From: a virus
DNA: 64,000 nt
Strand: one strand, 5' to 3'
Virus record (IMG/VR): IMGVR_UViG_3300033233_000015
Location: 46,082-110,081 of that record
Shown here: one piece after another, positions 19,878 through 26,453 of the stretch
Position numbering within the stretch: the stretch's first letter is position 1
How the letters are laid out: every line of letters begins with the position of its first letter
Program-made: the position numbers and the translations under genes
The notes under the pieces: model-generated
What the model was told of the DNA's origin: nothing
Seen by the model: only the letters and a program-made list of their open reading frames with translations
Databases searched by the model: none

Positions 19878-20537
19878 ATGATCGAGAAGCCCGTACCTGG
19901 CGTCCTCGCGAGACCTCACCCCGGCGGCAAACGCGGAGCGATGATCTCGCTCGACGAGACCGCGAAAGGCGCGTGGCGCGATCGGATGTCGCCGCGGCTT
20001 CGCGCGTGGGCTACGCAGCAGCTCGACAAGTGTGGCCGTCCCACGGGGAAACGCGCACGCGTGCAGTGCCTCCTCGACGCCTTCCGCAAGAAGGTGCCCT
20101 ATCTGGCCGATCCGAAGTGGGGTGAGTTCATCGCGAGCTCCGACCAGCTTCTCTGCGTGGACGAAGACAAGAACCTCTGCTTCATCGGCGCCGACTGCGA
20201 AGAGCACGCTCGAGCGATGGCGGCCCTCTGTCTCTGCATCGGGATTGACGCGATGATCGTGGGCCAGTCGTCACGAGATCCCGCCGACGTCCCCACGCAC
20301 GTCTACTTCGCGTTCAAAGACGATCTCGATTCGTGGGTCCGAGGCGACTCGACGACGACGTATCCGGTGGGCAGGGTCGCTCCGTACCTTCGCGAGTGGT
20401 GGGTCGATCCGTCCGAGGGTGTCGCTGAGGCGGGGCTCGGCGACATCGTCGTGATGGGCGCCACGGATGGTTTGCAGGATGCACCTAAAAATGGTGCGGT
20501 CTACACGGGTCGATACGCGGGGCTGTTCTCGAAATGA
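19878..20537 (+). CDS. Transglutaminase-like cysteine protease (candidate maturation protease)
   Basis: GADCEEHA...THVY...WVRGDST, Cys-His-Asp in transglutaminase order. Confidence 0.7.
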   Translation: MIEKPVPGVLARPHPGGKRGAMISLDETAKGAWRDRMSPRLRAWATQQLDKCGRPTGKRARVQCLLDAFRKKVPYLADPKWGEFIASSDQLLCVDEDKNLCFIGADCEEHARAMAALCLCIGIDAMIVGQSSRDPADVPTHVYFAFKDDLDSWVRGDSTTTYPVGRVAPYLREWWVDPSEGVAEAGLGDIVVMGATDGLQDAPKNGAVYTGRYAGLFSK

Positions 20538-20968: not shown

Positions 20969-22387
20969 ATGGCGTCCTACGCGGATTGGCTCTCAGAGAT
21001 GTCTCGACGGCGACCTCGCCGTCGTCGCGCTCGACGATCCGCCGCGCCCGTCGCCTCTTCCCGATCCTCTACATCCCGAACGTCGCCGAAGCGTCCTGCG
21101 AAAAAAAAGAAGACCAAGCAAACCGCCGGCTCCGGCGGACGTAAAACGAAACAAGGAGTGACCATGGCCCGTCGCCGTCGCCGAAAGCACGCCAAGAGCC
21201 CCGTCGCAGAGACCCGTCGTCGTCGCCGGCGAGCCGCAGCCCCGAAACGTCGTCGCCGTCGGGCGCGAGAAGCGGCGGTGGCGCAAGCTCCGCGTCGGCG
21301 TCGTCGCGCGCGTCGTCGCGCGGCACGGTCGTGGTTCGGCAACGCCCCCGGACATCGTCGAGCCGCGAAGAAGGGCTGGCGTAAGAAACGCAGCAGCGGT
21401 CGTCGGCGTCGAAGCCGCGAGGTGAGCGAGGCTCCGCGCCGCCGCCGCCCGAGCCGTCGTCGGGGTCGTCACTACCGAGAGGCCGCGCACGAGGCGCGTC
21501 GCGGCGGGTACTCCCGACGTCGGCGCCACGCGCGCAACAACCCGGCGATGAACGGAGGCGAGCTCGCCATCGCGTTCATCGCGGGCGGTCTCGGCTTCAC
21601 GCTCGCCGACTTCGCCGATCGGTACTTCGCCACGTACGATCCGTCGGCGACGGGCGAACTGCCGAAGGACAAGTTCACGGGCGGCAACGGCACGATGGCG
21701 AACACGCTCAACATCGCCGCGCCGCCAGGCTTCCTTCGAATCGGCGTCGGCGTCGCGCTGACGGCTCTTCCGGGGGTCGGCGCGTACCTCGTCAAGAACT
21801 CGATGGCGAAGGCCGCGCTCCACGGCATGATGATCGGCGCGGGCATCAAGCTCTTCTCGACGCTCTTCAATGCGTTCGTGATGGGCAACCTGCTCAAGCC
21901 GGGACCGCAGGACGATCCGAAGAAGTCGCTCGGAGCGCGCCTCTACCCGGCCGAGATCACCGCGGCGCAGAACATGTCGAACAGCCCCGCGACGATGGCC
22001 TCGCCGTTCAACCCCGGCCTCGCGGCTCGTCCTCAGCAACGCGACGTCGGACCCTTCGCACTCGCGCAGGATCCGAGCGCGTTCGCTCCCGCACCGAGCG
22101 CGCCGCCCGTGAACGTCGCGCCGAGCCCTCCGCCCGTGAACGTGGACAGACCGCCATCGAACGGCGGCGGTCCGCCCGTGAACGTGGACAGACCGCCATC
22201 GAACGGCGGCGGTCCGCCCGTCGTCATGAGCCCGCCCATGGGTCCGCCGCCCTCGAGCGGACCGCCCGCGCGATCGGGCGGATCCTGCCCCGCCTGCAAA
22301 GGCGAGAGCGGGGCGTGCGGCTGCCTCGGATCGCAACCTCAAGCGCAGACGAACTACGCCTACCTCGGCGTCATCAACGAATCGTGA
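20969..22387 (+). CDS. Arg-rich core-like protein fused to a membrane domain
   Basis: Long poly-Arg N-terminal region, then hydrophobic helices and a Pro-rich tail; alternative start at 21164 with AAGGAG SD. Confidence 0.75.
   Translation: MASYADWLSEMSRRRPRRRRARRSAAPVASSRSSTSRTSPKRPAKKKKTKQTAGSGGRKTKQGVTMARRRRRKHAKSPVAETRRRRRRAAAPKRRRRRAREAAVAQAPRRRRRARRRAARSWFGNAPGHRRAAKKGWRKKRSSGRRRRSREVSEAPRRRRPSRRRGRHYREAAHEARRGGYSRRRRHARNNPAMNGGELAIAFIAGGLGFTLADFADRYFATYDPSATGELPKDKFTGGNGTMANTLNIAAPPGFLRIGVGVALTALPGVGAYLVKNSMAKAALHGMMIGAGIKLFSTLFNAFVMGNLLKPGPQDDPKKSLGARLYPAEITAAQNMSNSPATMASPFNPGLAARPQQRDVGPFALAQDPSAFAPAPSAPPVNVAPSPPPVNVDRPPSNGGGPPVNVDRPPSNGGGPPVVMSPPMGPPPSSGPPARSGGSCPACKGESGACGCLGSQPQAQTNYAYLGVINES
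22130..22213 (+). repeat. Perfect 42-bp tandem duplication (PPVNVDRPPSNGGG x2)
   Basis: 22130-22171 is identical to 22172-22213. Confidence 0.9.
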
Positions 22388-22443: not shown

Positions 22444-23694
22444 ATGGAAGCTCAAGTGAAGAAGTCGATGACGAAAGCTCGGTTCGGCCAGGACCGCGAT
22501 CGGGTGAAGCGCGTTCCCTTCGGTCTCGGCGACGCGCCAAGCTCCGACGCGCTCAACAAGACGCTCCGTTGCTCCTTCGGCAACGTGCCCGTCATCGAGG
22601 AGGTCGTTTGGACGATTCCTCTCCCGCTCTCCGAAGCGGAAGCGCAGAGCACGTTCGGCGACATCATCAACGTGCTCACCTCGCAGGCGAACGTGCCGGG
22701 TGTCGCGTCGATCGACTCGACGTTCCTGCTCAACGGCATCCTGCAGACGGACCTCTACACGCAGGGCGTCGGCGTGCACGTCTTCTGCGAGCCGATGCAG
22801 CTCGCGACGATCGGCAACGCTTGGACGTCGCCGCCCACGGCCGGCGCCGTTCCGCCGCCGTCCCCCGACGTCTTCACGCTGAACGATGTCGCCGGCGGCG
22901 CGCTCGGTCTCGCGCAAGGCACCACGATGGTGCCCGCCGCCTTCGATTGGGGCGGCGAGGTGTGGCGCGCGGGCTGGAACTTCATCAACGCGTACCAGTT
23001 CCAGTGGAAGACGAGCCAGCGCGAGCTCGTCTTGAACGAGCTGGCGGCCGACGTCTCGTACTTCGGCAGCTTCGCGGACGCGGAGGCGGCGGGCACCAGC
23101 GAGTTCCCGATCGCGGAGCTCGTCGCGCGCACGAACGCCGTCTACCGCTCGAAGGCGTCGGGGTTCACCTTCCTCCCCGTGAACTTCCGCCGCGTCGGAA
23201 GCGTCACGGTGGCGGCGGCCAACGTCGGCATCTTCCACCCGACGCGCGACTTCGACCTCGCGCCCGTCACCTGGGGCGGTCTCCGCTGGCAGGGGTACGG
23301 CTGCAAGGGTCAGATGTACCGGATGATCGAGAACCCGTGCTTCCTCGAGCGCGCGATTCCGATCGGCATGCAGTTCATCGTGCAGGATCCGGTGCACCAG
23401 GCCGCGATGCTCGAAGCGCTCACGATGGACAACTCGCTGCTCGGGACGAACATCAGCCCCGACACGAACATCAGCTGCGCGAACACGACGACGGGCGCGA
23501 ACGTCATGCTCGAGCAGACGCTCGACTCGCCGCCCGTGAACACGCCGCAGCAGGTGACGCTCTGCCGTCAGGTCTTCAAGGGCGGCATCCTCAAGATCGG
23601 CATCAAGCTCAAGGGGTGGGAGTTCCCCGCTCCGTGGCGTCTCTGGTGCCAGCAGAACGCGCCGCAGCTCGTCTCCTGCCCCGCGCAGAGCTGA
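22444..23694 (+). CDS. Putative major capsid protein
   Basis: 416 aa, beta-rich, very strong codon bias, follows the core-like gene, followed by a strong hairpin; fold not verified. Confidence 0.6.
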   Translation: MEAQVKKSMTKARFGQDRDRVKRVPFGLGDAPSSDALNKTLRCSFGNVPVIEEVVWTIPLPLSEAEAQSTFGDIINVLTSQANVPGVASIDSTFLLNGILQTDLYTQGVGVHVFCEPMQLATIGNAWTSPPTAGAVPPPSPDVFTLNDVAGGALGLAQGTTMVPAAFDWGGEVWRAGWNFINAYQFQWKTSQRELVLNELAADVSYFGSFADAEAAGTSEFPIAELVARTNAVYRSKASGFTFLPVNFRRVGSVTVAAANVGIFHPTRDFDLAPVTWGGLRWQGYGCKGQMYRMIENPCFLERAIPIGMQFIVQDPVHQAAMLEALTMDNSLLGTNISPDTNISCANTTTGANVMLEQTLDSPPVNTPQQVTLCRQVFKGGILKIGIKLKGWEFPAPWRLWCQQNAPQLVSCPAQS

Positions 23695-23715
23695 GCCAAG
23701 CAGCGTGACTAGACC

Positions 23716-23751
23716 GCGACGGGCGGCGCGGATTTCTGCGCCGCCCGTTGC
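23716..23751 (+). terminator. GC-rich hairpin after the capsid candidate (attenuator/terminator)
   Basis: GCGACGGGCGGCGCGG-ATTTC-TGCGCCGCCCGTTGC, weak U tail. Confidence 0.65.
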
Positions 23752-23768
23752 CGTTTCAGGAGAGCCCG

Positions 23769-24455
23769 ATGCTGCCGCGTGACCTCCAGATAAAGAATCT
23801 CGCTTGGATCTCCCCCAAGATCGCCTACGGTCTCGTGGCGCAGGTTCCCCGTGTGCCGTTCGTCGGTCCCATCACGACGAACCCCGGCGTTCCGTCGCCC
23901 GTCGTACCGATTCAGTTCACCGCGAACTGGCTCGCTCCGCCCGCGCTGCCTCCGGGCAATCCGCCGAACAACATCGGCATCAACCCGATCATCCAAGGCA
24001 CGCTTCAGAACAACGTGACGCAGGACACGCTGATCGAGCGCATCGTGTACTCGCTCTGGCAACCGAACGCGTTCTCGACGCCGCCGTCTCCGTTCCAGAC
24101 GCTATACCTGTCGCAGCTCAAGAGCTCCACGGGCGTCGATGTCCTGCTCGATGTCTACGGAAGCCCGAAGTACCGCGTGTGCGACTTCTTGCCGCTCGAG
24201 AACCTCGCTGACGTGCTCGCCGTCACGTGGCCCAACGGATGGCCGCTGCGCAAGCAGGAGAACGTCAAAGTGCAGGCCGTGCTCACCAGACCGCAGCCCG
24301 GAACGGTCGAAGCCCCCGTCGGCATCCCGTACTTCGTGAACATGGCGCTCGTCGGATGGCAGTTCGTCGGGAAGGAGATCGACGACATGTCCGACGACGA
24401 GGCGCGTCGGCGTCTCAAAGCGATGGGGATCGAAGTCCCTGAGGTGCCGCGATGA
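23769..24455 (+). CDS. Putative capsid protein, paralog A
   Basis: AGGAG SD; alignable end to end with 24452..25075. Confidence 0.65.
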   Translation: MLPRDLQIKNLAWISPKIAYGLVAQVPRVPFVGPITTNPGVPSPVVPIQFTANWLAPPALPPGNPPNNIGINPIIQGTLQNNVTQDTLIERIVYSLWQPNAFSTPPSPFQTLYLSQLKSSTGVDVLLDVYGSPKYRVCDFLPLENLADVLAVTWPNGWPLRKQENVKVQAVLTRPQPGTVEAPVGIPYFVNMALVGWQFVGKEIDDMSDDEARRRLKAMGIEVPEVPR

Positions 24456-25075
24456 TCGACCGCGACTACAACGTGAAGAACTTGGCGCTCTACGCGCCGC
24501 GCGTCGCGTGGGCGATGATCGCGGGCATTCCGCGCGTCGCGTTCGCGGTGGACGTGCCGATTCAGTTCTCGTCGGCGACCGTCAACGCTCCCCCCGTCGT
24601 CGGGAGCTTTCAGAACTCGCTCACGCAGGACACCGTCATCGAACGTGTCTCGTTCTCGCTCTTCCAGCAGAACACGTTTCCGGGCTCTCCCTTCCAGACG
24701 CTCTACTTCGCGATGGCGAAGGCGATCAGTGGCGTCGGCGTGCAGATGAGCGTCTACGGGGGGCCGAAGTACAACGTGAACGACACGTTCACGGCGCTAG
24801 AGAACATGGCCGACGTGCTCGCGATCACGTGGCCGAGCGGATGGCCGCTCTACAAGGGCAGCAACGTCAAGGTGACGGCGGCGCTCCTCCAGACGCCGTT
24901 CTCGACGCCGTACGACGTGAACCTCACGTTCCTTGGCTGGCAGTTTCTCGACGCCGAGCTCGACGCGATGAGCGACTCGGAAGCTCGTCGTCGTTTGCGG
25001 GCGCTCGGACTCGAGTCACCCGATCTCGCATCGCTCATCGGATCAGGGGGCGCGACGGCGCCACACAAGGAGTGA
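24452..25075 (+). CDS. Putative capsid protein, paralog B
   Basis: Shares QNxxTQDTxIER, SPFQTLY, LENxADVLAxTWPxGWPL, GWQF, MSDxEARRRL with paralog A. Confidence 0.65.
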   Translation: MIDRDYNVKNLALYAPRVAWAMIAGIPRVAFAVDVPIQFSSATVNAPPVVGSFQNSLTQDTVIERVSFSLFQQNTFPGSPFQTLYFAMAKAISGVGVQMSVYGGPKYNVNDTFTALENMADVLAITWPSGWPLYKGSNVKVTAALLQTPFSTPYDVNLTFLGWQFLDAELDAMSDSEARRRLRALGLESPDLASLIGSGGATAPHKE

Positions 25076-25078
25076 GTC

Positions 25079-25561
25079 ATGGCATTTCGAATCGGTAGAA
25101 AGCACGCGCAGCACACGTACCCGGAGCCGAACAGGGGCAGCCAGGCGTTGTCGCTGGCACATGGGTGGGCGGACAACCCGACCGACGTAGCGATCGGGGT
25201 GGGAAATACCACCGTCGCGAGCGTGCCCGTAACCCCCAAAGTCACCGGCAAGTTTCGTGTGACGGCGACGTTCACGCCGACGAACACGGACACGGGCGTG
25301 CCGCACAACATCGTGCCGCTTCTGCGCCACGCGGGAGCACCGCCCGTCACCGACTACACGCCGGGGACGCCTACGCGCCTCGAAGTGGCGGCCGCGGGCA
25401 ACGAGGCCATCGCGACGGGCGCGTTCACGTTCGAGTACACCGTCGCGTTTCCGGTAGGTCAACCGGTCACGCTTCTCCTCACGCTCTCGGACGCGGCCTC
25501 GCCTGGGGTGACGGTCTTCGCGCACTCCGCGCAGCTCCTCGTCGAAGAAGTGGGGAACTGA
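25079..25561 (+). CDS. beta-rich putative virion protein
   Basis: AAGGAG SD; N-terminal GRKHAQHTYP motif. Confidence 0.65.
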   Translation: MAFRIGRKHAQHTYPEPNRGSQALSLAHGWADNPTDVAIGVGNTTVASVPVTPKVTGKFRVTATFTPTNTDTGVPHNIVPLLRHAGAPPVTDYTPGTPTRLEVAAAGNEAIATGAFTFEYTVAFPVGQPVTLLLTLSDAASPGVTVFAHSAQLLVEEVGN

Positions 25562-25574
25562 GGTCCACGCTCGC

Positions 25575-26453
25575 ATGAACAACGTCATTCGCCTTCAAGA
25601 CAAGCGCGGCGGTGTGGGGACGAACCTCCCCGGCGCGGCGGTGTGTCGAGGGCGATACGAAATCGTGTCCGCGTCGCTCGATCCCGATCTCGCGTTCATC
25701 GGAAGCGATCCGTACAACACGAGCGACTTCACGGGCGTCATCGTTCCTGCGGTGCCGTCGTCCTTTCTTGGCACCGGTCAGCGCTATCTCTTCATGCTCG
25801 CGCGCGCGCAGTTCAGTTCGGGACAAGAGGGGGTTCATCTAGTTGGTGTCCGCCTCTACGCTGATCTCGTCGCGCGCGTTCCGCAAGAGGACGCTCCCAC
25901 GCTCGTCTTTCACAAGGAGATCACGCACCCGATGTTCCATCCACCCGATGGCAACATCTCGTTCCATGTGATGGTCCTCGACAAGACGTGGCGCGACAGA
26001 AGGAACGCGTTCAACGCAGACACGAGGACGTTCCAAGACAGCTTCTCTCCATCGCTGCTCTTTCAGACGCCCGAAGCTGCGGGCTACACGCCGCCGAACG
26101 GCGGACGAGCCTGGGGAACTCCGCTCGACGCCTCACTCGGCAACATCCACGAGCTCCGATGGCCGTGGCGAGACAGCAAGATCGAGCACACCCTGCGCGT
26201 GCCCATCCCCATCCCGAGCGACATCGCCATCTTCGCGTCGGTCAGGCAGAACGATCCCGCTATGAACCCGAGCGCGGCCGGGTTGTCCGCGCAGCAGTTC
26301 GCGGCGCTCGATCCTGAGGAGCAGTTCCTCACTTCGTTCTTTACGGTCGCGCAGTACGGGCGCATCTCCGCATCGCTCGTCTTCGAGGGGGATTCGTTTT
26401 TGTACGGCAGCGAGGGATGCAAGTCCGAGGACTCGCGGGAGAAGTGCCGATGA
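25575..26453 (+). CDS. putative virion protein
   Basis: Long ORF in the structural operon. Confidence 0.65.
   Translation: MNNVIRLQDKRGGVGTNLPGAAVCRGRYEIVSASLDPDLAFIGSDPYNTSDFTGVIVPAVPSSFLGTGQRYLFMLARAQFSSGQEGVHLVGVRLYADLVARVPQEDAPTLVFHKEITHPMFHPPDGNISFHVMVLDKTWRDRRNAFNADTRTFQDSFSPSLLFQTPEAAGYTPPNGGRAWGTPLDASLGNIHELRWPWRDSKIEHTLRVPIPIPSDIAIFASVRQNDPAMNPSAAGLSAQQFAALDPEEQFLTSFFTVAQYGRISASLVFEGDSFLYGSEGCKSEDSREKCR

Follow-up and report, generated by a model that had tools for sequence, protein, structure and literature searches.

A candidate shell gene module with a predicted jelly-roll protein and a young tandem paralog in an uncultured 110-kb virus

To our knowledge, the genomes of those viruses of bacteria and archaea that have been characterised as having a jelly-roll shell are small (roughly 10-30 kb) and are packaged by an ATPase of the FtsK/HerA type. 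For sphaerolipovirus-type viruses such as HCIV-1, HHIV-2, SH1 (capsid proteins VP4/VP7) and P23-77 (VP17/VP16), the lower figure for genome size is ~16 kb, and sphaerolipovirus particles contain the small capsid subunit in numbers that equal or exceed those of the large one. Passages in two sources (10.1101/741942, PMC8328091) describe the sphaerolipovirus-type viruses as carrying a packaging ATPase of the FtsK/HerA superfamily. In Sulfolobus polyhedral virus 1 (SPV1), the hexamers consist of VP4 and the pentamers of VP10, each protein being a single jelly-roll (PMC8459092). Here we analyse a 64,000-nucleotide stretch of viral DNA (“the window”; bases 46082-110081, the right-hand 64 kb of the single-contig, 110,081-bp IMG/VR record IMGVR_UViG_3300033233_000015), in which three consecutive genes at window positions 22444-25075, here called A, B and C, are followed at a short distance by a fourth, E. 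We think it more likely than not that A, B, C and E make up the module of shell (capsid) genes of an uncultured bacterial virus whose 110-kb genome is complete, one member of a large environmental clade with genomes of ~100-125 kb.

The module appears to work like a jelly-roll capsid module and fits no described family that we found; full-text searching of the literature returned no description of the clade. SPV1 (Portogloboviridae; PDB 6oj0) infects archaea and has a circular genome of 20 kb, whereas the genome here has 110 kb and its relatives were binned with Binatia and Polyangiaceae metagenome-assembled genomes (MAGs). The main SPV1 protein has ~180 aa against the 416 aa of A, profile searches against the PDB found no sequence similarity of A or C to SPV1, and the fold match of C to it is moderate and common to non-viral jelly-rolls. 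The tectiviruses PRD1 and PR772 (Tectiviridae; coat protein P3, penton protein P31) lack a tandem paralog pair of the small protein such as the B-C pair here, and a match to their A32/P9-type ATPase was not found in this genome. The PRD1 genome is also about seven times smaller than the 110-kb genome here. The genomes of HCIV-1, HHIV-2, SH1 and P23-77 are given as ~30 kb or smaller in PMC12643093, in contrast to the 110,081 bp of this virus; no counterpart of their ATPase was found here at the sensitivity of Pfam hidden Markov models (HMMs), no homology of A and C was detected, either between the two or with sphaerolipovirus proteins, and a hairpin that follows A suggests a different stoichiometry. 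Finally, Pfam searches of the complete genome found no HK97 capsid protein, portal or large terminase of tailed phages.

The clearest fold prediction in the module is that of C (24452..25075, plus strand; 207 aa), a gene found clade-wide with 448 homologs in its family. A model built with 120 relatives (pLDDT 81.7, pTM 0.74) has an eight-stranded sandwich at residues 28-165, a predicted single jelly-roll, followed by short helices. Foldseek ranks chain A of the SPV1 capsid first (E 7.6e-4, probability 0.99), and further matches include HHIV-2 and SH1 (small capsid proteins) and FLiP (penton protein); the non-viral jelly-roll of PHM gave 6.9 against C. The predicted fold of C is a jelly-roll that leans to capsid proteins, a lean that is suggestive, with non-viral jelly-rolls also among its matches. 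After the jelly-roll, both C (residues 172-193; 24965-25030) and B (residues 204-226; 24378-24445) carry a conserved helix-extension-helix tail with the motif MSDxEARRRLRxLGI. Per-member Pfam scans gave weak LEM-domain matches in 63 of 121 C-family members, the best of which (E 0.014) falls short of the cut-off. The tail resembles HeH/SAP/LEM motifs, several of which bind DNA, and might anchor the subunit on the viral genome or on a partner protein.

Gene A (22444..23694, plus strand; 416 aa) probably encodes the major shell protein. It has at least 387 close homologs, the best 120 of them at 64-73% identity, on contigs of up to 160 kb, and its wider family comprises 187 clusters at 50% identity (alignment A7; effective number of sequences, Neff, 5.7). 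The G+C content at third codon positions (GC3) is 0.93, the highest among plausible genes in the 110-kb genome, which agrees with a previous sequence-only reading of this DNA in which A was credited with very strong codon bias. The synonymous divergence (dS) of A from a close relative is 0.37, about half that of its neighbours (0.73-0.88), and this fits strong codon selection. We find no match for A, B, E or the gene D described below, or for C, in Pfam and PHROGs scans, no match for 66 A-family proteins in per-member Pfam scans, and no match for A or C in a tblastn search of 50,697 phage records. Profiles of the A family, both shallow and deep, and of the C family were also compared with all PDB sequences and found no capsid protein at E <= 10; homology to sphaerolipovirus VP4/VP7 or VP16/VP17 did not appear.

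The structure of A is predicted less firmly than that of C. Its model, with ~17 predicted strands, was built before the deep alignment A7 existed and has a pLDDT of 71.7 and a pTM of 0.70. Foldseek returned nothing at E <= 0.001, and hence no double jelly-roll protein at that cut-off. Its weak matches were uniformly papillomavirus L1, with capsids of CRESS viruses in BFVD, and sequence-feature neighbours in the ESM Atlas were polyomavirus VP1 and other small-virus capsids, all below 0.9 and to be taken as leads only; nearly all of these weak structural and language-model neighbours are viral capsid proteins. In a second-look structural comparison the best matches were full-length alignments to the double jelly-roll P3 of PRD1. 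Single-domain sandwiches scored equally well over residues 47-395, which suggests one sandwich. Our conclusion is that A folds as a beta-sandwich and falls in the capsid jelly-roll class, either with one jelly-roll that has large insertions or with two. The jelly-roll folds that had been proposed for these proteins are accordingly predicted for C as a single domain, and for A in class, with one or two domains. Near its N terminus A has an arm with an R-x-x-F-G-L-G motif (residues 23-30, RVPFGLGD; 22510-22533), in which G27 and G29 keep at least 90% conservation even across the deep family alignment, whose members are 20-54% identical to A. The arm looks like a candidate maturation cleavage site, a conserved transglutaminase-like protease being encoded a few genes upstream.

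B and C are clear paralogs, as had been claimed (45% identity, E 1e-66; BLASTP). A was said to belong with them on the basis of a common C-terminal strand and a weaker N-terminal pattern. BLASTP finds no match between A and either protein. Comparison by hhalign of A with C and B gives a probability of 0.4% with shallow profiles and is also negative at low-mact settings; with the deep A profile (Neff 5.7) against C the probability is 0.8%, and the sole aligned stretch is the GW(E/Q) strand, at P = 0.07 in that one test. When profile windows were scanned without gaps, the IKLKGWE/LTFLGWQ pair scored 17.2 and an RVPF pair 17.1, against a maximum of 20.0 +/- 2.2 over 200 column-shuffled controls, and the N-terminal pair NGILQTD/QNSLTQD lay outside the top 15. 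The motifs are literally present, their scores are no better than chance, and a relation of A to B or C is not detectable at the sequence level. Neither the common strand nor the N-terminal pattern stands out from chance in this comparison. The proposal of three related subunits, one large plus two small, is not supported, and 30 related loci have a single small gene.

These related loci (n = 32, of which 30 cover the position after A) were taken from two sources, IMG/VR and MAG contigs that carry the label Binatia or Polyangiaceae. Their order is conserved: a transglutaminase-like protease, an Arg-rich protein, A, one small protein, E and membrane proteins. All 30 loci have just one small gene behind A, and its product is orthologous to C (56-71% identical to C, 43-50% to B). 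Complete relatives have genomes of 111-125 kb; those reached through loci L016, L017 and L026 have direct terminal repeats and a CheckV completeness of 100%. In five complete relatives, among them three with such repeats, the B/C family is represented by exactly one gene per genome, as against two in the genome studied here. The module of the clade thus appears to be A, one small predicted jelly-roll protein (the C ortholog) and E, and since B is found in only about six genomes, one large plus two small subunits is not the clade's design. E (25575..26453, plus strand; 292 aa), which completes the conserved module as its third gene, follows the C ortholog in nearly all related loci, with orthologs at 39-69% identity. 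It has no relation to the A and C families by hhalign, its family profile has no meaningful match among PDB sequences, and its ESM Atlas model is unusable (pLDDT 0.27).

Gene B (23769..24455, plus strand; 228 aa) is the subgroup-specific tandem paralog of C. Its ATG start is backed by an AGGAGA ribosome-binding site at 23758-23763 and by orthologs that start with MLPRD, and its stop codon overlaps the start of C in the sequence ATGA. What mainly sets it apart from C are Pro-rich insertions, ~27-45 residues long, that separate the first long strand from the second (alignment A4), and some B orthologs have an additional insertion ahead of the last strand. Among 187 significant matches to B, five are true orthologs (64-73% identity, 227-243 aa), every one on a contig that carries one of the nearest C orthologs, and both B-bearing contigs examined (L037 and L038) have the order A-B-C-E. 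In a quick maximum-likelihood search with IQ-TREE, the six B sequences form one clade (100% SH-aLRT) on a long stem. The C genes from the B-bearing genomes form a nested clade (99%) within the diversity of C, and the branching orders of B and C agree. The placement of B at the midpoint root is possibly a long-branch artefact. Pairwise estimates of dN/dS (0.32 for B, 0.21-0.26 for C) are rough because dS is near saturation. B appears to be a functional gene under purifying selection with somewhat relaxed or altered constraint. We rejected a decaying pseudogene in view of the intact reading frame, the gene's own ribosome-binding site, the conserved orthologs and the dN/dS of 0.32. As for an ancient paralog lost elsewhere, the nesting of C from B-bearing genomes and the agreeing topologies make a single duplication far more parsimonious. 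The simplest history that the sequences suggest is that C was duplicated in tandem once, in the ancestor of a small subgroup, and that B has since evolved faster.

Between A and B lies a hairpin (23716..23751, plus strand) with a 16-bp GC-rich stem and a 4-nt loop, directly 3' of A and followed in order by CGTTTC, the AGGAGA ribosome-binding site and the start codon of B. The 81-nt segment that contains it folds at -47.3 kcal/mol (z -5.6; none of 200 shuffles was as good), and the strong downstream hairpin of the sequence-only reading is thereby borne out. A hairpin of -29 to -50 kcal/mol is present 3' of A in 26 of 26 related loci, in most with a T-rich tail. Its recurrence in all 26 loci, with sequences that differ from one to the next, marks it as a conserved feature and not as a chance palindrome. 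A simple terminator scan did not report it, owing to the short T run. The hairpin looks like a terminator or attenuator, or like a stabiliser of the mRNA 3' end.

Based on these data, we propose that A is the major shell protein and that the hairpin, by terminating or attenuating transcription or by stabilising the A message, would place A in excess over the downstream products. C would be a second, less abundant shell protein with a single jelly-roll. We slightly favour a subunit of the fivefold vertex (penton) for C because of the precedent of SPV1, with its hexamer protein and pentamer protein; alternatively, C would share capsomers with A. B would be made in step with C through translational coupling at the ATGA overlap, as a variant copy that probably takes some of the positions of C or adds a surface feature by way of its Pro-rich loop insertions, and E would be the conserved third component. 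From the genes we infer that the products of A, B, C and E are in the virion, and likewise their copy numbers and positions. The earlier idea that the three genes belong to a capsid module is supported: C is a predicted single jelly-roll with an SPV1 capsid chain as its best match, A is conserved and exceeds the other genes in expression bias, and Pfam searches of the genome gave no match to an HK97 capsid, a portal or a terminase.

The genes around the module are in keeping with this proposal. A transglutaminase-like (papain-fold) cysteine protease candidate (19878..20537, plus strand) passes the Pfam cut-off (PF01841, E 1.1e-6), has orthologs of 40-62% identity upstream of A in most related loci, and may be a maturation protease. 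Directly upstream of A, the gene at 20969..22387 (plus strand; 472 aa) encodes an Arg-rich protein with N-terminal RRRR runs, hydrophobic segments in the middle, Pro-rich repeats of the PPVNV type and a Cys-rich end. The C-terminal two thirds of this protein are 33-56% identical to proteins encoded upstream of A in related loci, and it may be a DNA-condensing, core or membrane protein. Gene D (25079..25561, plus strand; 160 aa), by contrast, lies outside the conserved module: it encodes a beta-rich protein and stands between C and E in this genome only. D-like matches in relatives are absent or 3-5 kb downstream, and L037 and L038 run directly from C to E. The N-terminal 70 residues of D match those downstream proteins of some relatives, at times in two copies, which suggests a small family with a common N-terminal anchor and variable bodies.

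The record has a CheckV completeness of 100% and is classed as linear in IMG/VR; the GC content is ~64% throughout, and no tRNA genes were found in the window. We searched a six-frame translation of the complete genome, with the sensitivity of Pfam only, and found no match at E <= 1 to the HK97 capsid (PF05065), portal (PF04860) or terminases (PF03237/PF03354), nor to FtsK (PF01580), poxvirus A32 (PF04665) or HerA (PF01935). A Pfam sweep of 106 open reading frames (ORFs) likewise had no HK97 capsid, portal, terminase or packaging-ATPase family, and no DNA polymerase family, among the 25 top families listed. In the five complete relatives there was no match to Terminase_6N and none to FtsK above the cut-off. 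The relative reached through L018 (locus L062) has a sub-threshold FtsK-like match of 11.4 bits in a 693-aa ORF, a candidate packaging ATPase. A Walker-A scan of the ORF set returned no candidate in the structural region, a weak negative since known ATPases were also missed, and no alternative capsid candidate was detected in the genome. Because the locus combines predicted jelly-roll proteins, an Arg-rich core-like protein, a cysteine protease and a run of membrane proteins with negative Pfam searches for the hallmarks above, the most economical reading is that of a tailless, probably membrane-containing icosahedral virus.

The rest of the genome encodes replication and modification functions. 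A UvrD-type helicase at L002:2593-4914 (minus strand; genome 21593-23914) is split by an intein that bears an HNH endonuclease. Further genes outside the locus are those for a SNF2 helicase, a primase-polymerase, an RNA ligase, a PD-(D/E)XK nuclease, an AAA_24 protein and C5 and N6/N4 methylases. QueC and a PAPS-reductase-like protein are also encoded and, together with the C5 methylase, point to DNA base-modification genes. At another place in the genome the Pfam sweep picked up a second HNH_3 match, and its families include an IS1595-type transposase.

Other explanations of the module deserve consideration. In a sphaerolipovirus-type design, A and C would be the “large” and “small” vertical single jelly-roll major capsid proteins of mixed pseudo-hexameric capsomers, with B as a third subunit in the subgroup. 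A and C are adjacent and co-conserved in all related loci, as such partners would be, and the coupling of B to C through ATGA hints that one assembly takes up both in equal numbers. We nevertheless think this design unlikely: A and C have no sequence relation to each other and neither is related to the solved sphaerolipovirus proteins, the conserved hairpin between A and the small gene argues for an excess of A, the packaging ATPase of FtsK, HerA or A32 type was not found by Pfam, and the best second-look matches of A are to a double jelly-roll protein over its full length. The genome is, moreover, more than three times the ~30 kb stated for sphaerolipoviruses in PMC12643093. A second alternative is an oversized double jelly-roll virus, in which C (and B) would be the single jelly-roll pentons that accompany a double jelly-roll capsid. 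At 416 aa and ~17 predicted strands A has the right size and strand count, and an excess of A set by the hairpin fits the ratio of major capsid protein to penton. This we hold to be quite unlikely, given that single-domain sandwiches score equally on residues 47-395 of A, that Foldseek gave no double jelly-roll protein at E <= 0.001, and that Pfam found no ATPase of the A32/FtsK type.

A further explanation places A, B and C outside the icosahedral shell, as abundant beta-sandwiches of a spike, of cement or decoration, or for carbohydrate binding, with a true capsid of an unrecognised fold encoded elsewhere. There is room for such a capsid among the many large ORFs of the structural region that have no annotation, and the shell role of A, B and C is read from the genes. 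The top codon bias of A and its strong conservation (64-73% among the best 120 homologs), however, are unlike typical fast-evolving spikes; A lies between an Arg-rich core-like protein with a protease and a run of membrane-protein genes, as in membrane-containing tailless viruses; and no other capsid candidate came to light. We judge this explanation very improbable. Several points also weigh against our preferred reading, the shell module with A as its major protein. The model of A is only moderately confident, with two of five models below 60, and leaves the choice between one domain and two. E could itself be the penton protein. If C is the penton, present in 60 copies, an equimolar coupled paralog such as B has no obvious place at a fivefold vertex. 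The hairpin has no long U tract and escaped the terminator scan, so attenuation is something that we infer.

What is new here is the test against homology between A and B/C, the young duplication that produced B, the conserved hairpin after A, and the finding that E, and not B, is the conserved third partner. A widespread clade of 100-125 kb with jelly-roll shell candidates and no recognisable motor, portal or terminase would extend the jelly-roll design several-fold in size and would raise the question of how DNA enters the shell. A more far-reaching interpretation, which we put forward as speculative and rather unlikely, is a new high-rank lineage of membrane-lined icosahedral bacterial viruses of the 100-kb class with jelly-roll shells and a packaging system yet to be found, in which B-C, presumably produced in equal amounts, would be a diversifying subunit that forms mixed capsomers or occupies distinct lattice positions. 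If this were true, B-C would be a recent, datable case of the gene duplication by which capsids of one protein are proposed to have given rise to two-protein capsids and eventually to fused double jelly-roll capsids. As a young duplicate in about six genomes, B would offer a clean natural experiment on a capsid gaining an extra subunit.

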